DNA from: a virus
Virus record (IMG/VR): IMGVR_UViG_3300038758_000078
Location: 1 to 5,813 of that record
Strand: one strand, 5' to 3'
DNA: 5,813 nt
In this document: piece by piece, positions 1 through 5,813 of the stretch
How the letters are laid out: every line of letters begins with the position of its first letter
Position numbering within the stretch: position 1 is the first letter of the stretch
The notes under the pieces: model-generated
Seen by the model: the letters and a program-made list of their open reading frames with translations, nothing else
Database searches by the model: none
What the model was told of the DNA's origin: nothing
Made by a program: the position numbers and the translations under genes

Positions 1-99
1 CTGAACATCCTCATTCCAACGACGCAAATACATCGAGCCGTTGATACGAGAAATTTCCCAAGCCTGCGCTAGATCACGATTGGTCACAATAAAACCAAC
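1..99. repeat. Left copy of a 99-bp terminal direct repeat, identical to 5715..5813. This is the assembly overlap of a circular genome with a 5714-nt unit length.
   Basis: Read directly: the string ctgaacatcctcattccaacgacgcaaatacatcgagccgttgatacgagaaatttcccaagcctgcgctagatcacgattggtcacaataaaaccaac occurs at 1..99 and at 5715..5813. An ORF runs through the junction in frame. Confidence 0.9.
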
Positions 100-648
100 A
101 CCCAAAGGTTTACCGTCAACGCCGCCTCCGCTCTGCTCATTCGCCACAGCTAAAACGCCACGACCAACTACCTGATACACATTCAGACCTAAGGTAGCCG
201 AAACAATCTTCGTCGGAGCAATTACAACCTTAGTATTAGGCAACACACCGAACTGCCCATCTACTCCAGTCCGCATATGAAACAAACCGCCACCAGCGGT
301 CAGCGTACCACGCATCCAAATCGGACACACGTCAATAACCTCAGCATGAAGGGCACCAACAGTCTGGGGCACTTCAAAACACACATTCACGTCATACTCA
401 AAGAGCTCTATCTTCTCCTCTTCAACCTGAGTTCCCACATGCACTCCAATACCCTTACAGCTATCCACTGGTATACCTACGGCAGGCGTAAGAGATCGAA
501 ACCGATAATATCGCTCAGAAGTCTGTGCAGCATTATCAAACTCCAAGATAGCACCACCAGATCCCGTTGACACCTGCATTAGGTTGGTATTCAACGCCTC
601 AATAGTATCTACCTTAACCACATCTACTTGTCTTGGTCTATTAGCCAT
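1..648 (-). CDS. G: Major spike protein G-like, first 216 codons. The ORF leaves the window at base 1 and continues on the circle at 5714..5688, giving 224 aa in total.
   Basis: Hand translation from the ATG at 648..646 gives MANRPRQVDVVKVDTIEALNTNLMQVSTGSGGAILEFDNAAQ...GKPLGVGFIVTNRDLAQAWEISRINGSMYLRRWNEDVQ, with no stop down to base 1. A GGAG lies 8 nt upstream of the ATG, which is 2 nt after the F stop. The position after F matches phiX174 gene G. The C-terminal VGFIVTN motif resembles phiX174 G VGFMVWSN (from memory). The ORF is missing from the track because the window edge truncates it. Confidence 0.7.
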   Translation of the reverse strand, partial: MANRPRQVDVVKVDTIEALNTNLMQVSTGSGGAILEFDNAAQTSERYYRFRSLTPAVGIPVDSCKGIGVHVGTQVEEEKIELFEYDVNVCFEVPQTVGALHAEVIDVCPIWMRGTLTAGGGLFHMRTGVDGQFGVLPNTKVVIAPTKIVSATLGLNVYQVVGRGVLAVANEQSGGGVDGKPLGVGFIVTNRDLAQAWEISRINGSMYLRRWNEDVQ

Positions 649-650
649 AA

Positions 651-1928
651 CTACATCTCCGTTCCAGCAAATAACGATTTTCCATAACCACCAATATGCC
701 GTAAGCAACGCACATTATTCCTTACCTGATACTGCCAATGGCCAAACTCTGTAGAAGCAAAACCTGAAGAATACTTCTTCGAAGGATAAAGCACTGCCTC
801 TTGCAAAGTCTCCGGCTCATCTCGAAAAAACGGAAAACCGTTCTTATTATCATACCGCCTATCAACAATGTTCGGCTGATACCGCCACTGCTGCCCAGCC
901 GGAATCTTACCCAAACTCACTGTCGAAGTAGAATCCCGAAAACAATCACGCCTTTCCAAATCATAAGGCTTCCGCTTCTCCAACTCTGTAGGATCGCCAG
1001 TCAAATTAGCATAATCCATCGTAGTTCCGAGCCTGCCTACCTGCGCATGCATCTCGCGTTCATGACTCGGGGGGTAACGCAACACAGCAACAGTCCAAAT
1101 AGTACCATGCTCCGGCATTAACTTTCGCGGCACATGATGGCCTACGATCGTCTCTACGCGCCCAGCGACTTCACCTAAATTACCAGACGCTGTGCCATAA
1201 ACATCAAAACCTGACAACCACTTCGAAGAATGACCTAAAACTTCCGGCCGCTGATCCGCATCAGTAGTCGCATAACCACCGAACTTCTTCATCACATCAC
1301 TGTAATAATTCGCAGTCCACTCACGCTGCAACTGAGTCTCATACTCTGCCGCCGCTTGCGCCAACGCTGTCAACTCGAAACTAGCTGCTGAAGCTACTGT
1401 ATCATTCGTTGGATACGATCCAGAATCATGCCCAACATTCCACAACGCAGGCAGAGACGCAGTAAGCCAGCCCCATCTAGCGTTAGAACCAGAACTAGTT
1501 GTTGTGGCGACCGTTCTCTCAGCCAAGCCTTGCCGCTCGGTCCGAAAATACCGATTCCAGATTCTAACATAGCCTTCAATAAGCCAAAGCGGAACGGGCT
1601 GATTTCCGAGCCAGGGGATAGCGTACCAATGATTCCAACCCGCAACCGTCGGGTCGAGTGTCGATAACGTAACGCCGCTCGAATTTCCATCCTTCAGAAA
1701 ATTAATCCAATCACTACCGTATATATGTCGATGCGGCACAAAAAAGCTCACCACATCCGCCTTCACGTCCGTCTGCAAAGGCCGCCGAAAAGGGTTCATC
1801 TTAAAGATGCCCTGCATATCAATCTCAATCGAATCGCCAGCCATCACGGGCAGAACATTAAGCGTCCTAAGCCGGCCGACCATTCCTGTGCCAAAACTCA
1901 AATTTGACAAATCTACAAGCGTTCTCAT
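651..1928 (-). CDS. F: Major capsid protein F (phiX174 type, 425 aa).
   Basis: ATG start and TAG stop. It aligns by eye along its whole length with phiX174 F (426 aa). Examples: PVMAGDSIEIDMQGIFKMNPFRRPL...FFVPHRHIYGSDWINFLKDG vs PVIAGDSFEMDAVGALRLSPLRRGL...FYVPHRHVYGEQWIKFMKDG, FGGYATTDADQRPEV vs FGGKTSYDADNRPLL, VPEHGT, and GFPFFRDEP vs GFPFIQEPP. It has the compact phiX size, not the roughly 500+ aa gokushovirus VP1 size. Confidence 0.97.
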   Translation of the reverse strand: MRTLVDLSNLSFGTGMVGRLRTLNVLPVMAGDSIEIDMQGIFKMNPFRRPLQTDVKADVVSFFVPHRHIYGSDWINFLKDGNSSGVTLSTLDPTVAGWNHWYAIPWLGNQPVPLWLIEGYVRIWNRYFRTERQGLAERTVATTTSSGSNARWGWLTASLPALWNVGHDSGSYPTNDTVASAASFELTALAQAAAEYETQLQREWTANYYSDVMKKFGGYATTDADQRPEVLGHSSKWLSGFDVYGTASGNLGEVAGRVETIVGHHVPRKLMPEHGTIWTVAVLRYPPSHEREMHAQVGRLGTTMDYANLTGDPTELEKRKPYDLERRDCFRDSTSTVSLGKIPAGQQWRYQPNIVDRRYDNKNGFPFFRDEPETLQEAVLYPSKKYSSGFASTEFGHWQYQVRNNVRCLRHIGGYGKSLFAGTEM

Positions 1929-2066
1929 CTAAAAAATCTTGTTAGGCCGTAAGCTCGGCATACTTCTAGGCGCTCTCACAGTACCGACCCGCCGATTCGA
2001 CGACGACCGGACACCACTACCGGAACGGCGGCCTCCACGCCGCCCTCCCTGTCGCTTACCCTTCAC
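1929..2066 (-). CDS. J: Small basic DNA-binding/packaging protein J-like (45 aa, GTG start).
   Basis: Hand translation gives (GTG)M-KGKRQGGRRGGRRSGSGVRSSSNRRVGTVRAPRSMPSLRPNKIF, with 14 Arg/Lys and no acidic residues. The N-terminus resembles phiX174 J MSKGKKRSGARPG. It sits between D and F as in phiX174. A GAAGGG lies 7 nt upstream of the GTG, and a TGA two codons upstream excludes any earlier start. It is below the size cutoff of the ORF track. Confidence 0.8.
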   Translation of the reverse strand: MKGKRQGGRRGGRRSGSGVRSSSNRRVGTVRAPRSMPSLRPNKIF

Positions 2067-2517
2067 TAGTCAACCCTTCTACCTTATTCCGGAAATTCTC
2101 CACAAAAACCGGATTCTGACCATAAGCTGCTACCGTCAAAGCCAGCAACCTCCGAGGCGTAACCACCTCATGGACCGCTGGAGCCTCATTCGCTTCCGTA
2201 CCGCCGGCCATCTCAGTTTGCAATGATAGCTTCTGGCCGCACCAGCTACACGCGACCATATGGTTAATCGGGTGCACAATCAAAGCGATCGTCGCCGCAA
2301 CAACCTCCGCCGGCAAAGGCACAGCAGGCAAAGAAGCCAACTCGGTTCCCGCAGCCAGCACTTGCTCCAAGGCTCTCGTCATACGCGCCCGATCCGTCCC
2401 CGTCCAAGGCACCTGAGACTTCAACCGATCCAAATCCGCCTCGTTCACATTCGCCGTATAAACAGGCAGTGAATCCGTGCACAACCGCATACAATATTCC
2501 AACGTCGCTTTATTCAT
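2056..2517 (-). CDS. D: External scaffolding protein D (153 aa).
   Basis: ATG start. The size matches phiX174 D (152 aa). Alignable blocks include WTGTDRARMTRALE vs WIATDRSRARRCVE and AATIALIVHPINHMVAC vs AAVIAYYVHPVNIQTAC. Its position immediately upstream of J and F matches phiX174. Confidence 0.88.
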   Translation of the reverse strand: MNKATLEYCMRLCTDSLPVYTANVNEADLDRLKSQVPWTGTDRARMTRALEQVLAAGTELASLPAVPLPAEVVAATIALIVHPINHMVACSWCGQKLSLQTEMAGGTEANEAPAVHEVVTPRRLLALTVAAYGQNPVFVENFRNKVEGLTSEG

Positions 2518-2824
2518 AATTTCTCAATACTTTCTCGGACTGTTCAATTACACTTTCGAATTCTCCAACTCCGGAAATCCACTCTTTCAAGCGCATCTGC
2601 AAATCTTGAAACGCCTTCTGGCACTCCAACCGGCTCACGATCTGCGACATTTTAACAACTTGCCTCATCTGGCATAGCTGCGTCAACGCAAAACTCATGC
2701 GTCCTCTATGCAACAAGCCTAAATCAACCAACGTACTCAATAACTGCCATTCCTCCAATTCAATCTCATCCCAAGATTTGACCGACAGCTCGCGACGGCA
2801 GCGCAAAATATTCCTTGAGCTCAT
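2510..2824 (-). CDS. C-like small protein (104 aa from the ATG at 2824). The ORF is open from a GTG at 2887, which would give 125 aa.
   Basis: It lies between A and D, where phiX174 has K and C. It overlaps the A 3' end by at least 59 nt and the D start by 8 nt. The stretch ELEEWQLLSTLV loosely resembles phiX174 C DEEKWLNMLGTFV (from memory). The start codon is uncertain: AGGCGG lies 7 nt before the ATG. Confidence 0.5.
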   Translation of the reverse strand: MSSRNILRCRRELSVKSWDEIELEEWQLLSTLVDLGLLHRGRMSFALTQLCQMRQVVKMSQIVSRLECQKAFQDLQMRLKEWISGVGEFESVIEQSEKVLRNYE

Positions 2825-4142
2825 ACAGCAACCGCCTAGCTTCAGAAATGCCCTCGGAACTCGGGGCCAAGGTCCATTCGCCAACACTCCGAGGCATGGA
2901 ATCCCTTGTCTTCAAAACCGACCGACTTAGGCGGCTGAACAGGGTCTCCGTCCTTGGGACGGTATTGAGGAACCGTGACGCCATGTCCTGCCCTCCAGTA
3001 TGGCTCAACGCTCTCCTGTACATCCTCCGACCCAGCTCCAACTTCGCCACTCGCCGCACCAGCCTCACCTGTGAGAACTCTCTGCTCTTGCTCCACGCCA
3101 CCAGCGCGACCAACCCCTTTTCGCTCGCCTGCTCCACTACCGCCGACAGCTTCTGCATCCCGAACCGTCTCGACATCTTTACTCGCCATGCTTTCCGTTT
3201 CCATTCTTCACCTTTCTGCTTAATCAGGTATTTTACCAGATAATTAGCCAAGCGCCCACCTGACGACGACACCGGCACAATCTTCTCTTCTCCGTCCACT
3301 ACTTCCTTCCGACTTGGCCAACGCCAACCCAACTCCGAATACGCATCACCAGCCCAACGCACCGCGATCGGGCTACTGGTCCCATACGGCCACCATCTAC
3401 GCAAAGCGTCAATCTCTCTCCGAACTCCACCGGCAAACGGATTCATATCCTGACAACCAGCCGGCAAATGAGACATCACTACAACACAATGAAAATGCAA
3501 TCGACCAGTTTCACCTCCCTCTTCAGGAATGCAAAAATAGGAAAAATACGCTTCTTCACCTGCTTTCTCAGCCGCTGCCTGCACGTCCTTGCGCCACTTC
3601 TCTTTCTGGATTCTCCACAAATTAGAGCCACGCTTAAAAACCTTAGGCAACCACTCATTATCACACGACAACGAATTGAACACCACAAACCGCTTCTCTC
3701 TCACTGCTTCTGAGATTTCACACAATAACCGTCCGCGATACTCGGCCGCACGACTTGATTCACGCTGCATCGCCAACAACTTCTCCAAATCACGCAAAAC
3801 TTCAACCTTACTGCTGGATCCGAGACCACGCGTCCGACTTCTGACAAACTCCAACGCCGGTTTCACTTCCCGCCGAAGACCTAAATACTCCTGGTCTAAT
3901 GCAATAACGGATTTCTTATCAAGTCGGTTTAATCCACGACGCACTGACGACAAAGCCGCACGACCTTCCAAATGCTCTGAAGCACTCATACCTTGACCTG
4001 GCCGCCTAGGAAACCAGGCACTCAACTTAGCCTCCGCTGCTGACAGCTCATTCACGAGGCGACCAATCTTAGTGCCTAGAAAATAAGACCGACCAATCTT
4101 GATAGAAGCATGCATACCTCTGAAAACCAAATAAATACACAC
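2766..4142 (-). CDS. A: Replication initiation protein A (HUH rolling-circle endonuclease). It is 458 aa from the GTG at 4142, and the first ATG is at 4115.
   Basis: The HUH motif RLHFHCVVV (HFH encoded at 3489..3497) matches phiX174 GRLHFHAVHF. The twin catalytic tyrosines YLVKYLIK (Tyr codons at 3240..3242 and 3228..3230) match phiX174 YVAKYVNK. Further blocks are YFCIPEEGGETG vs YFCVPEYGTANG, WPYGTSSPIAVRW vs WPYGYSMPIAVRY, and RVKMSRRFGMQKL vs RIRMSRNFGMKML. The start is ambiguous: the GTG at 4142 has no SD, and the ATG at 4115 is directly abutted by AGAGGT, which is too close. Confidence 0.95.
   Translation of the reverse strand: MCIYLVFRGMHASIKIGRSYFLGTKIGRLVNELSAAEAKLSAWFPRRPGQGMSASEHLEGRAALSSVRRGLNRLDKKSVIALDQEYLGLRREVKPALEFVRSRTRGLGSSSKVEVLRDLEKLLAMQRESSRAAEYRGRLLCEISEAVREKRFVVFNSLSCDNEWLPKVFKRGSNLWRIQKEKWRKDVQAAAEKAGEEAYFSYFCIPEEGGETGRLHFHCVVVMSHLPAGCQDMNPFAGGVRREIDALRRWWPYGTSSPIAVRWAGDAYSELGWRWPSRKEVVDGEEKIVPVSSSGGRLANYLVKYLIKQKGEEWKRKAWRVKMSRRFGMQKLSAVVEQASEKGLVALVAWSKSREFSQVRLVRRVAKLELGRRMYRRALSHTGGQDMASRFLNTVPRTETLFSRLSRSVLKTRDSMPRSVGEWTLAPSSEGISEARRLLYELKEYFALPSRAVGQILG
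2842..3204 (-). CDS. B: Internal scaffolding protein B-like (120 aa), embedded out of frame in the 3' half of gene A.
   Basis: ATG start with AAGGTG 4 nt upstream. It has the same length (120 aa) and the same gene-within-A arrangement as phiX174 B. The N-terminal part is acidic and Gly/Ala-rich. The C-terminus CWRMDLGPEFRGHF resembles phiX174 B DWRIQPAEFYRF...GYF, the aromatic tail that contacts F. Confidence 0.72.
   Translation of the reverse strand: METESMASKDVETVRDAEAVGGSGAGERKGVGRAGGVEQEQRVLTGEAGAASGEVGAGSEDVQESVEPYWRAGHGVTVPQYRPKDGDPVQPPKSVGFEDKGFHASECWRMDLGPEFRGHF
3891..3926 (-). other. Candidate viral-strand replication origin inside gene A, with the predicted A-protein nick between G3920 and A3919 on the minus strand.
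   Basis: The minus strand reads CGACTTGATAAGAAATCCGTTATTGCATTAGACCAG. The phiX174 origin, as I recall it, is CAACTTG^ATATTAATAACACTATAGACCAC. ACTTGATA and TAGACCA are shared, with 6 extra nt (2 codons) between them. Both lie at an equivalent place in A (ours NRLDKKSVIALDQ, phiX PQLDINNTIDH). Confidence 0.6.
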
Positions 4143-4149
4143 ACAGAAA

Positions 4150-4169
4150 CCAAATCAATTATTGATTGG
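4150..4169. promoter_or_regulatory. AT-rich palindrome between the orf101 stop and the A start.
   Basis: aatcaat-t-attgatt forms perfect 7-bp arms at 4153..4159 and 4161..4167. With one bulged A the pairing extends to cc/gg at 4150..4151 and 4168..4169. It is the only obvious structure in the 34-nt orf101-A spacer. Confidence 0.3.
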
Positions 4170-4176
4170 ATTCGTT

Positions 4177-4482
4177 TCACTCCTCAGTAACTCCAGTAGG
4201 ATCGCCAACGCCACTCTCTTCATCGCCGAACACAACTTCGGCTCCTCGATCCGATGCTCCTTCGCTGACGCTAACACGGCTCCTGTCAAACTCGTGATTT
4301 TCTGTAATTCTGACATAATTCGTAACAATCGTATTAGGCCTATCACGGCCACTAGTATTCAAAATAGCCGACTCAAGCATACCAAGCTTGAAATAATCAG
4401 TCTTCACGGAGCAGCCTTGACTTAGCAGCCCGCAGACGACGCCACATAGCACGCGATTCAATTTCCTTACATCGAACATCAT
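4177..4482 (-). CDS. orf101: predicted small secreted lipoprotein (101 aa, about 78 aa mature), with no phiX174 counterpart.
   Basis: The start is ATGATG, preceded by GAGG with a 6-nt spacer (TTAGAGGAATATTATG). The N-terminus is MMFDVRKLNRVLCGVVCGLLSQGC|SVKTD. It has a basic n-region, an uncharged h-region and LSQG-C24, which satisfies the PROSITE-style lipobox rule [LIVMFWSTAG]2-[LIVMFYSTAGCQ]-[AGS]-C. The mature part is hydrophilic with an acidic tail and Ser at +2. Confidence 0.55.
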   Translation of the reverse strand: MMFDVRKLNRVLCGVVCGLLSQGCSVKTDYFKLGMLESAILNTSGRDRPNTIVTNYVRITENHEFDRSRVSVSEGASDRGAEVVFGDEESGVGDPTGVTEE

Positions 4483-4645
4483 AATATTCCTCTAACAACT
4501 TTCTACACTTTCTCAACGATTTAGTTGCAACCAACGCATTCTCGATAGAATCCAAACTATCATTAATTCCATTAAAATCATCAGATAAATTCACCAATGC
4601 TTCGTTACATCCGGCCACACTCGAAAAGTCAATCTCATATTCCAT
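4397..4645 (-). CDS. orf82: small charge-bipolar protein of unknown function. The track ORF extends to a TTG at 4651 (84 aa).
   Basis: It is the first ORF after the noncoding region. From the ATG at 4645 it reads MEYEIDFSSVAGCNEALVNLSDDFNGINDSLDSIENAL, with 9 acidic and 0 basic residues. It continues as VATKSLRKCRKLLEEYYDVRCKEIESRAMWRRLRAAKSRLLRED, which is strongly basic. No SD is present. It appears helical by eye, and I recognise no family. Confidence 0.45.
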   Translation of the reverse strand: MEYEIDFSSVAGCNEALVNLSDDFNGINDSLDSIENALVATKSLRKCRKLLEEYYDVRCKEIESRAMWRRLRAAKSRLLRED

Positions 4646-4651
4646 AAACAA

Positions 4652-4679
4652 ACAATAACACAGAACAAAAACAAGTCAA
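4652..4679 (-). promoter_or_regulatory. Candidate sigma70-type promoter driving orf82-orf101-A.
   Basis: On the minus strand, TTGACT (4679..4674) is followed by a 16-nt spacer and then TGtTATTGT: an extended -10 TG at 4660..4659 and the hexamer at 4657..4652. A T-run, UP-element-like tract (tttttttgttttttttg) lies immediately upstream. Other weak -35/-10 pairs exist in this T-rich region, so the call is tentative. Confidence 0.35.
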
Positions 4680-4700
4680 CAAAAAAAACAAAAAAATAGA

Positions 4701-4816
4701 ACTGAGCAAAACAACCATAAACAGAGTAAAACAAGTAACAAAATGCCTATAACGAAAAAATAAGAATAGGCAAATAAAAAAGAAACAGAACTAAAGTAAA
4801 CACACTGAGCAAAACA
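4701..4816. repeat. Short dispersed direct repeats in the noncoding region.
   Basis: actgagcaaaaca occurs at 4701..4713 and at 4804..4816. The related gagtaaaaca lies at 4724..4733, 20 nt after the gagcaaaaca core at 4704. Confidence 0.5.
4744..4772 (-). terminator. Weak hairpin plus U-tract (terminator-like) in the H-orf82 noncoding region.
   Basis: tgcctat (4744..4750) pairs with ataggca (4766..4772) across a 15-nt loop. On the minus strand it is followed by TTTTGTTACTTGTTTT. The stem is short and AT-rich and the loop is large. Confidence 0.2.
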
Positions 4817-4837
4817 CATTCGTGTCACTAATATGAT

Positions 4838-4874
4838 GAAGCGCGCGATAAAAGCGTCTACGACGCCGCGCTTC
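4838..4874. other. Two-tier GC-rich hairpin in the noncoding region.
   Basis: The outer stem pairs gaagcgcg (4838..4845) with cgcgcttc (4867..4874). The inner stem pairs gcgtc (4854..4858) with gacgc (4862..4866) across a 3-nt loop, leaving an 8-nt bulge at 4846..4853. Confidence 0.6.
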
Positions 4875-4884
4875 TACTAAACTT

Positions 4885-4911
4885 GGGAGACCCCCAGAAA
4901 GGGGGTCTCTC
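4885..4911 (-). terminator. Strong GC hairpin about 20 nt downstream of the H stop. It may be the post-H transcription terminator and/or an ssDNA structural element.
   Basis: gagaccccc (4887..4895) pairs perfectly with gggggtctc (4901..4909) across a 5-nt loop (agaaa). Outer bases can extend the stem. The trailing sequence on the minus strand is only moderately U-rich (AAGUUUAGUAG), as with the leaky phiX174 terminators. Confidence 0.5.
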
Positions 4912-4932
4912 CAGCTAGACACTCTAGACTCC

Positions 4933-5688
4933 TCAACGTCCTGGGGATGGAATCATGCCAGGAATCTTAGAGGTAGCCTTTTCGTAGGACTTAGATAAAC
5001 GATGCATAGAATCCGTGAACTCCAGCAACGCCTTGTAGATCGACAGAGCTCGATCTGAAGAAACATCCGCATGCTTTCGCAACAACGCTCCAATCTGCTC
5101 GGGCGTAACAGACCCGGACCGTTTCATAAAATTCGCGAAACCATTAACCAAATTGCGAGTCTGAGCATACGTCAAATCAGCTTCCGCTAACTCCTTCGCA
5201 AACTTCGCTGACTCTTCGGAACGCGGTAAATTCGTCTCCTGAATAGCCGCTTGCGCATTCTGAAAACGTGCACTTGCTTGATTCGATTGCACCTTCGAAG
5301 CCATCTCGCCTCGAGACGCTTCCGATGTCCTATCCGCTGAATACTTCTGAGCATCTGCACCTATACGAGCAATCTTCTCTGAATTACGAGCCTGCAACCG
5401 AGCAATACGATACTGATCTGAAACACCAGCACTCTGACCGCCGGCAGAGCCGGCAGCACCTCGTAAACGCTCATGTGCCGACGTGCCAGGGTACGCACGA
5501 TCCATATAGTCTTTCTGAGCCCTGCCGGCAAACTTACCTCCAACATAAGCATTAACTCCGGCACCAGGGATCTCGGCAAGAGCATCCTTGATACCTTCAC
5601 TAGTCCTTGTCATTAAATTCTGCGTGGGGGCAGCATCCGTGCCGCCCCCAAACGCACCACTTAACAGCTTACCAAATGCACCAAACAT
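4933..5688 (-). CDS. H: DNA pilot (minor spike) protein H (251 aa).
   Basis: The ATG at 5688 overlaps the G-like stop (TAATG). The Gly-rich N-terminus MFGAFGKLLSGAFGGG resembles phiX174 MFGAIAGGIASALAGG. KDYMDRAYPGTSAHERL resembles RDYLAAAFPELNAWERA. A central Gln/Ala-rich helical region matches the phiX174 H coiled-coil type. It is the last gene before the noncoding region, as in phiX174. Confidence 0.85.
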   Translation of the reverse strand: MFGAFGKLLSGAFGGGTDAAPTQNLMTRTSEGIKDALAEIPGAGVNAYVGGKFAGRAQKDYMDRAYPGTSAHERLRGAAGSAGGQSAGVSDQYRIARLQARNSEKIARIGADAQKYSADRTSEASRGEMASKVQSNQASARFQNAQAAIQETNLPRSEESAKFAKELAEADLTYAQTRNLVNGFANFMKRSGSVTPEQIGALLRKHADVSSDRALSIYKALLEFTDSMHRLSKSYEKATSKIPGMIPSPGR

Positions 5689-5813
5689 TAGCCTGTAGAA
5701 TTAGGGTTCAGGGACTGAACATCCTCATTCCAACGACGCAAATACATCGAGCCGTTGATACGAGAAATTTCCCAAGCCTGCGCTAGATCACGATTGGTCA
5801 CAATAAAACCAAC
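5688..5813 (-). CDS. G: 3' end of the same G-like spike ORF: the last 41 codons plus the TAA stop. Bases 5715..5813 duplicate 1..99.
   Basis: The frame is continuous with 1..648 across the circular junction (648 + 27 nt = 225 codons). The ORF ends ...NEDVQSLNPNSTG then TAA at 5690..5688, and that stop shares its last A with the H start codon (TAATG). Confidence 0.7.
   Translation of the reverse strand, partial: VGFIVTNRDLAQAWEISRINGSMYLRRWNEDVQSLNPNSTG
5715..5813. repeat. Right copy of the 99-bp terminal direct repeat (circularisation overlap).
   Basis: Identical to 1..99 and runs to the last base of the window. Confidence 0.9.

Follow-up and report, generated by a model that had tools for sequence, protein, structure and literature searches.

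The phiX-like microviruses are the best-understood model of single-stranded DNA (ssDNA) virus assembly, and almost all of this knowledge comes from coliphages. The pequenoviruses were reportedly named by Bryson et al. in 2015, and genomes with the external scaffold gene D, the spike gene G and a phiX-type gene order outside the enterobacterial phages are said to have been described since that year. GenBank holds pequenoviruses from methane-seep sediment of the Eel River basin (KP087943 and KP087947) and the cultured Vibrio phages vB_VpP_WS1 and vB_VpaM_PG19, all with D, a nested B and the capsid gene F. Here we describe the IMG/VR record IMGVR_UViG_3300038758_000078, a stretch of viral DNA of 5813 nt that we call the window and whose positions are used throughout. 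The window is very probably a complete circular genome of 5714 nt from an uncultured phiX-like microvirus of Family 1 (Suborder I), belonging to a third clade beside the Bullavirinae and the pequenoviruses.

Family 1 / Suborder I was defined by Kirchberger et al. 2022 as all Bullavirinae genera together with Klebsiella prophages and pequenovirus-like metagenome-assembled genomes (PMC9239249). Its hallmarks are a spike protein and an external scaffold, and the thresholds on the VP1 protein are at least 30% identity over at least 80% of the length for a family and at least 50% for a genus (PMC9239249). The Vibrio phages have been described as lying outside the existing subfamilies and no G homologue was reported for them; the same paper lists 73 genomes with A, D and F, mostly IMG/VR contigs (PMC9431446). 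In the window, D is recognized by profile and G by predicted fold, and F is 33–38% identical over 96–99% of its length to the F proteins of the Bullavirinae, the pequenoviruses and the Vibrio phages. The identity of F is below 50% to every named genome, and there is thus no genus-level identity. The window belongs to Family 1 / Suborder I, outside the Bullavirinae genera of the ICTV and outside the pequenovirus clade. The original prediction had taken the combination of D, J and B to be confined to the enterobacterial phiX, G4 and alpha3 groups, which is contradicted by the pequenoviruses, the Vibrio phages, Family 1 itself (PMC9239249) and the presence of D in about 50 IMG/VR contigs. It had also proposed that the genome broadens the lineage. 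However, the group with D was already recognized, and the window adds a member to it, possibly the first complete genome of the third clade.

The first and last 99 nt of the window (1–99 and 5715–5813) match at 100% identity, which gives a circle of 5714 nt. The left copy of this direct terminal repeat is an assembly overlap inside gene G, the right copy is redundant with it, and the unique circle is 1–5714. In IMG/VR the record carries the flag for direct terminal repeats and a completeness of 100%. Gene G spans the repeat: the left end of the window encodes G residues 1–216, and the right end encodes the last 41 residues and then continues with H. In an independent metagenome contig of 2290 nt (Ga0212021_1003051, here L056), the end of F, G, H and the beginning of the non-coding region follow one another without a break, and the joined G of the window aligns end to end with the 221-amino acid G of this contig, from NRPRQV to YLRRWNEDVQS.NPNS. 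Because G reads through the junction and has a contiguous homologue in L056, closure of the circle at the 99-nt repeat is supported. Additionally, an F protein identical to that of the window is found on at least five contigs of up to 5.7–6.2 kb from JGI, ENA and Logan assemblies. Circularity is well supported by this assembly evidence, and the complete 5714-nt circle with a 99-bp terminal identity that had been proposed from the sequence is borne out by the exact repeat, the IMG/VR flags and the continuity of G.

The credible genes are all encoded by the minus strand and follow the order of phiX174, A(B)-C-D-J-F-G-H. The GC skew is negative along the entire plus strand, and the coding strand is rich in G and T (G 31.6%, T 28.6%, A 22.2%, C 17.6%). 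The junctions between genes are tight: C overlaps D and D overlaps J, there are 0 nt between J and F and 2 nt between F and G, and the stop of G overlaps the start of H in a shared TAATG. No Rfam families or tRNAs were found in the window. The phiX-type gene set and order had been predicted, and we find F, D, H and A by profile and G by predicted fold, with B, C and J assigned by position, frame, length and composition.

Gene F (651–1928, minus strand) encodes a major capsid protein of 425 amino acids that matches Pfam Phage_F (PF02305) with an E-value of 5.3e-62 (210.7 bits against a cut-off of 25) and phrog_514 (9e-68), and it lacks large insertion loops. Gene D (2056–2517, minus) encodes an external scaffolding protein of 153 amino acids with matches to Pfam gpD (7.6e-11, 42.6 bits against a cut-off of 25) and phrog_1386 (5.2e-21), and phmmer matches it to D in 50 loci. 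Gene H (4933–5688, minus) encodes a DNA pilot or ejection protein of 251 amino acids that matches Pfam Microvir_H (3.1e-7, 30.5 bits against a cut-off of 22.7) and phrog_1471 (4e-9) and has a strong coding signal. Gene A (2766–4115, minus) encodes a rolling-circle replication initiator of 449 amino acids from the ATG at 4115, with matches to phrog_713 (2.4e-51) and Pfam REP_ORF2-G2P (1.7e-6). The Phage_F capsid and an HUH initiator on a circle of 5714 nt, within the range of 4–6.5 kb, are features of the Microviridae (order Petitvirales).

Gene G encodes a major spike protein of 224 amino acids, running on the minus strand from 648 to 1 and continuing from 5714 to 5688. Its last eight codons and stop (SLNPNSTG and the stop codon, 5688–5714) form a tail that is conserved in three metagenome proteins (P0026–28). 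Only three full-length relatives were found among 1.84 billion representatives. An AlphaFold model of G has a predicted local distance difference test score (pLDDT) of 64 and a predicted TM-score (pTM) of 0.66. The top five Foldseek matches of this model are the solved G structures of phiX174, G4, alpha3, PJNS001 and PJNS002. VIA-align superposes the model on these five with Z-scores of 9.7–10.8 and root-mean-square deviations of 3.0–3.2 Å over 143–145 residues, and the next match has a Z-score of 6.8. A profile built from G and four relatives matches the open reading frames (ORFs) at the G position in loci of the pequenovirus clade (E-values from 1.7e-5 to 1e-2), and these are linked in turn by phmmer to the G proteins of phiX, G4 and alpha3. 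On the strength of the predicted fold, we accept the protein encoded after F as a G-type spike.

Between the window and L056, F is 83% identical and H 80% identical (over 205 amino acids), compared with 35% for G (window 1–648, minus, against L056 699–1364). Good conservation of G is restricted to the first eight or so and the last 20 or so residues. G is therefore probably a fast-evolving gene, as expected of a receptor-binding spike, and its divergence suggests either diversifying selection or exchange of the spike gene. Residues 59–98 of G (window 471–354, minus) also match nine places in a gel-forming mucin of eukaryote type with 4340 amino acids (P0029, E-value 9e-7), the domains of which are Mucin2_WxxW (eleven copies), VWD, C8 and TIL. 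We set this match aside as probably the result of chance summed over repeats, or of a shared small beta motif.

A blastn search with the whole genome gave no match among 50,697 phage records. By tblastn, 599 phage records hold a relative of F, all at less than 60% identity, and the best of these matches (36–37%) are the Vibrio phages WS1, PG19 and WS0699, the Eel River basin pequenoviruses, G4 and ID2. Compared with phiX174, G4, an alpha3-like phage, Vibrio phage WS1 and pequenovirus KP087947, the window's proteins are 35–37% (F), 27–32% (A), 30–37% (D) and 25–33% (H) identical; with two IMG/VR contigs (L004 and L005) added, the ranges are 35–38% for F, 27–35% for A and 27–39% for D. Every protein compared is far below 80% identity, in agreement with the divergence from the phiX174 types that had been proposed. 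Scans of IMG/VR with the single F protein and with A found nothing. An alignment-based F scan recovered 52 loci at 20–39% identity, with D present in 50, A in 48 and H in 31. Two related IMG/VR records have a different arrangement. One of 11.1 kb (IMGVR_UViG_3300020043_004369, L035) carries F, A and D twice each and looks like a head-to-tail dimer. The other (IMGVR_UViG_3300020050_002980, L034) has a microvirus genome at the end of a 42.8-kb contig, with an F identical to that of a 5.7-kb circular record (L048), and this arrangement could reflect a concatemer, a chimera or an integrated copy.

The closer relatives are unannotated metagenome sequences. Four proteins (P0002–P0005), of which P0005 is NCBI AXQ65991.1 ('MAG: major capsid protein, Microviridae sp.') from a contig of 5096 nt, are 48–54% identical to F over their full or near-full length. 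The 83% identity of L056 in F is over the C-terminal half. Relatives of A are found among metagenome proteins at 56–86% identity, and one of these (P0034) lies on a contig of 5520 nt. As far as the sources show, none of these sequences (L056, P0002–P0006 and P0033–35) is from a named or described virus.

Maximum-likelihood trees of F were computed under LG+C20, a quick tree with 64 rows and a careful tree with 40 rows. Both resolve the same three clades, which in the careful tree are a clade of the Bullavirinae isolates with Vibrio phage WS1 and some uncultivated virus genomes (UViGs; support 97/95), the pequenovirus clade (100/99) and the clade of the window (98/93), which has seven rows. The F sequences place the window in this third clade, which holds no isolate or annotated genome among those reached. 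In this single-gene tree the window does not group with Alphatrevirus, Gequatrovirus and Sinsheimervirus, and the clade of KP087947 forms without it. The clade of the window is sister to the pequenovirus clade with weak support (85/61) in the careful tree, and the base is an open fork in the quick tree. A further record of 6300 nt (IMGVR_UViG_3300020045_001527, L024), with an H of 496 amino acids and an A of 349 amino acids, has a long branch and groups weakly (87/77) with the clade of the window.

The A protein contains an HUH motif (LHFHCVV) and a tyrosine motif (YLVKY, of the form YxxKY), both of which align with those of the A proteins of phiX174, G4 and alpha3. The start codon is preceded by GAGG at a distance of 4–5 nt, and the N-terminus is conserved from Met1 in the metagenome relatives P0033–35. 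These are 86, 63 and 56% identical to the window's A by BLASTP (85, 64 and 58% in a MAFFT alignment), and share its origin peptide RLDKKS. A putative viral-strand origin lies within A at 3892–3926 (minus strand) and consists of CGACTTG/ATA (3926–3917), an 18-nt spacer and TAGACCA (3898–3892). The sequence CGACTTGATA has a single exact match in the window, at 3926–3917 on the R-L-D codons. In most of 48 related loci, the 'xLD' codons at the homologous place in A carry this core or a variant differing by one base, with the form C[AGT]ACT[TAC]GATA and most often ACTTGATA. By analogy with phiX174, the ACTTG/ATA core would be the nick site. The full 30-nt phiX origin is absent from the window, with no match within three mismatches to its first 20 nt.

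A candidate for gene B, which would encode the internal scaffold, is overprinted in the +2 frame of A (2842–3204, minus strand; 120 amino acids). A nested ORF in 47 other loci shares its frame, place and length, and in both the window and KP087947 the ORF is located at +938 nt and has 120 amino acids. The stop-free run of 121 codons in this frame exceeds those in synonymous-codon shuffles of A (P = 0.0035). Control ORFs nested in F and H are no more open than synonymous shuffles (P from 0.37 to 0.73), and we rejected these as genes. The B candidate is preceded by the ribosome site AAGGTGA, and a frame plot scores its frame above that of A in this region. Its C-terminus (...ECWRMDLGPEFRGHF) resembles the tail of the group, xAEF[YW]xFxD......G[YR]F.

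The candidate for gene C (2510–2824, minus strand) is positional. It fills the gap between A and D, with 104 amino acids from the ATG at 2824 or 62 from the ATG at 2698, and its stop overlaps the start of D. The coding signal is weak and the product does not resemble other C proteins in sequence; an ORF of 60–115 amino acids is found at the same place in most related loci. The candidate for gene J (1929–2066, minus), presumed to encode the basic DNA-packaging protein, was chosen by its position between D and F and by its composition. It has 45 amino acids, of which 14 are lysine or arginine and none aspartate or glutamate, and begins with a GTG that overlaps the stop of D. Its coding score is positive, and it lacks the C-terminal YVGG motif of many relatives. 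A phmmer search with G, B, C, J and the two small ORFs described below (orf82 and orf101) found no matches among all ORFs of 55 loci.

The interval between H and A (4116–4932, 817 nt) contains two conserved hairpins and two orphan ORFs. Adjacent to H is a non-coding region (4646–4932, minus strand) that is T-rich on the coding strand and in which no frame scores as coding. It is the sole sizeable spacer in the genome, at about 290 nt. Within it are two GC-rich stem-loops, at 4884–4913 and 4838–4874 (minus). Folded as ssDNA, 4640–4935 has a free energy of -34.3 kcal/mol against a mean of -12.4 for shuffled sequences (z = -7.6). The first 170 nt or so of the region, through about 4765, are highly conserved in L056, and the aligned stretch is 81% identical, with insertions and deletions that are not multiples of three. 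Both stems are retained in L056, with paired changes (GCGCG/CGCGC to GCACG/CGTGC) and also some losses of paired bases in this comparison of two sequences. The paired changes and the non-triplet insertions and deletions fit a structural element rather than a gene. Since this is the only real spacer, a terminator following H and the complementary-strand origin should be located here, and the stem-loops are candidates for either role or for both. A promoter-like site (TTGACT-16-TATTGT) lies at 4679–4652; such sites are no more common in the window than in shuffled sequences.

The two orphan ORFs lie between this region and A. The first, orf82 (4397–4645, minus strand), has no Shine-Dalgarno sequence and a weakly positive coding score in its own frame. 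An Atlas model of its product is a confident helical hairpin (pLDDT 0.82), and no relatives were found among the fetched loci. The second, orf101 (4177–4482, minus), has a good ribosome site (AGGA followed by ATGATG) and a weakly positive coding score. The N-terminus of its product resembles a signal peptide or a lipoprotein, the Atlas model is poor and gives no usable lead (pLDDT 0.35), and the only match among 5.8 billion proteins is to itself. Both orf82 and orf101 are candidate genes at most. The 'extra genes' of the original prediction are these two ORFs, orphans with no detectable relatives and a weak coding signal.

Overlapping the non-coding region is a T-rich stretch (4591–4828, minus) with hydrophobic pseudo-ORFs of 50 and 47 amino acids that reach Kyte-Doolittle maxima of 2.8–3.0 in a 19-residue window. 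We rejected these as genes, as they have no coding signal and their frames are broken by the insertions and deletions in L056. Gene callers or searches for lysis genes could take them for membrane proteins. The motif TTTTGCTCAGT occurs twice in this stretch.

In the search for an analogue of the lysis gene E inside D, the ORFs found have 76 and 47 amino acids and contain no hydrophobic stretch (19-residue Kyte-Doolittle maxima of 1.09 and 0.03). Neither has a transmembrane stretch, so D holds no analogue of E. The 76-amino acid ORF, in the +2 frame of D (2264–2494, minus strand), is borderline in its openness compared with synonymous shuffles (P = 0.045). Its product is rich in glycine, alanine and cysteine with no transmembrane stretch, and the ORF may be due to chance. 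A more specific proposal is that the window represents, as its first complete genome, a third D-scaffold lineage of subfamily rank that lacks E within D, uses a gene between H and A, such as orf101 or orf82, for lysis or host interaction, and has a G spike that evolves much faster than the other virion proteins. We regard this as tentative and, taken as a whole, unlikely.

The genome resembles those of the Bullavirinae in the order A(B)-C-D-J-F-G-H, in D, in the G-type fold, in the compact F of about 425 amino acids, in an A with HUH and YxxKY motifs, and in the ACTTG/ATA core inside A. Since alpha3-like coliphages have 730–760 nt between H and A, the long interval of about 0.8 kb in the window is not unusual. 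However, the proteins of the window are only 35–36% (F), 27–32% (A), 33–37% (D) and 25–31% (H) identical to those of the Bullavirinae, and its F falls in a separate clade. G is longer (224 compared with 175–187 amino acids) and is not recognizable by sequence, there is no transmembrane ORF inside D and no YVGG tail on J, and the intergenic spacers between J and F and between F and G are missing. The origin boxes are 18 nt apart compared with 12 nt in phiX.

Like the window, the pequenoviruses of the Eel River basin and the IMG/VR clade related to them are environmental and uncultured, with genomes of 5.2–6.0 kb, D, a nested B and a protein of about 210–227 amino acids at the G position that is found by the window's G profile. 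H is also short in this clade (199–313 amino acids), and KP087947 has a small ORF between H and A. In contrast, F is only 36–38% identical, and B, C, J and the small ORFs are not similar. The Vibrio phages vB_VpaM_PG19 and vB_VpP_WS1 are likewise non-enterobacterial and have A, a nested B, D, F (37% identical) and H. They differ in grouping with the Bullavirinae in the F tree and in that no G homologue has been reported for them, whereas the window has a spike with the G fold. An ORF of about 165 amino acids follows F at the G position in vB_VpP_WS1 (L003, 1–495). As the G of the window is recognizable only by its fold, this ORF may also be a cryptic G. The unannotated relatives (L056, P0002–P0006 and P0033–35) are closest, sharing the F clade and, in L056, the conserved hairpins after H; they are fragments or single proteins.

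Several points weigh against reading the window as a complete Family 1 genome of a third clade. The support for circularity is assembly evidence. The phylogeny is that of a single gene, F, with weak support for the deeper branching that joins the clade of the window to that of the pequenoviruses. In sequence, B, C and J are not significantly similar to the phiX proteins of the same names, and the B of the window escapes a hidden Markov model built from the 47 others (E-value 0.67). G has no match in Pfam (including Phage_G) or PHROG, and confidence in its model is middling (pLDDT 64). Finally, no lysis gene was identified in the genome. The first of these points bears on the alternative that the repeat is an assembly artefact, the window being either chimeric or only part of a molecule that is larger or concatemeric, with the 99 nt common to its ends through an accident of assembly. 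An overlap of 99 nt equals a common assembler k-mer length, and some related IMG/VR records are multimers or lie inside larger contigs (the two copies of F, A and D in L035, the 42.8-kb contig of L034). We nevertheless hold an artefact to be very improbable given that each gene of the phiX set is present exactly once with no foreign DNA, that G is continuous across the junction and matches the contiguous G of L056, that the same F occurs on at least five contigs of 5.7–6.2 kb from different sources, and that the size of the genome is inside the range of its relatives (5.1–6.3 kb).

The circle could also be the excised form of a temperate or integrated element like the microvirus prophages of Klebsiella or Enterobacteriaceae. 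We saw neither an integrase nor any dif-like or att feature in the window, and two scans with clade-specific patterns for F and A, run over 185,579 species-representative genomes of bacteria and archaea, found no prophage relative and no link to a host. Even with prophages reported in Family 1 and an interval between H and A that is roomy enough for accessory functions, such an origin seems extremely improbable. A somewhat less remote alternative, to which we would still give a small chance, concerns placement: the window might be a divergent member of the Bullavirinae, as a sister or basal genus, and the three clades would then be a false picture produced by a tree of one gene, F, with a remote outgroup. 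Its genes and their order are those of the Bullavirinae, the base of the three clades is poorly resolved (the open fork and the support of 85/61), and the extent of a subfamily is a matter of convention. However, the clade that holds all of the isolates, the Vibrio phage and some UViGs (97/95) excludes the window, which has a clade of its own (98/93), and the identity of F to the Bullavirinae (35–36%) is no higher than to the pequenovirus (36%). In addition, the 30-nt origin that, among the fetched loci, is common to the phiX- and G4-type genomes (L021, L006, L009 and L010) and one UViG (L028) is absent from the window. A complete circular genome in a third clade of Family 1 is the reading we retain.

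If the virus replicates and assembles as phiX174 does, the viral strand that is packaged would presumably be the coding one, the window's minus strand. Protein A would nick the origin inside its own gene and begin rolling-circle replication. Pentamers of F and of G would form procapsids with the aid of two scaffolds, B inside and D outside; J, which is basic, would enter with the DNA, and H would act as the DNA pilot. The conserved hairpins in the 0.29-kb non-coding region after H would likely serve as a terminator, as a complementary-strand origin or as both; the region also holds the promoter-like site.

The window is a real, complete and ordinary-looking phiX-type genome that is deeply divergent from the coliphages and belongs to a group already described at the family level. 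It leaves the view of microvirus diversity as it was, since that view already took in the broader group. The genome raises the small question of how such phages lyse their hosts. Its value is that, as a complete environmental genome of the third clade, it allows comparison at a distance of about 35% identity for an assembly system known mainly from coliphages. The E lysis gene, the tail motif of J, the spacing of the origin boxes and the positions of the intergenic hairpins are not kept across this distance, whereas the D scaffold, the fold of G, a candidate B overprinted in the same frame of A and the ACTTG/ATA core of the putative nick site are.

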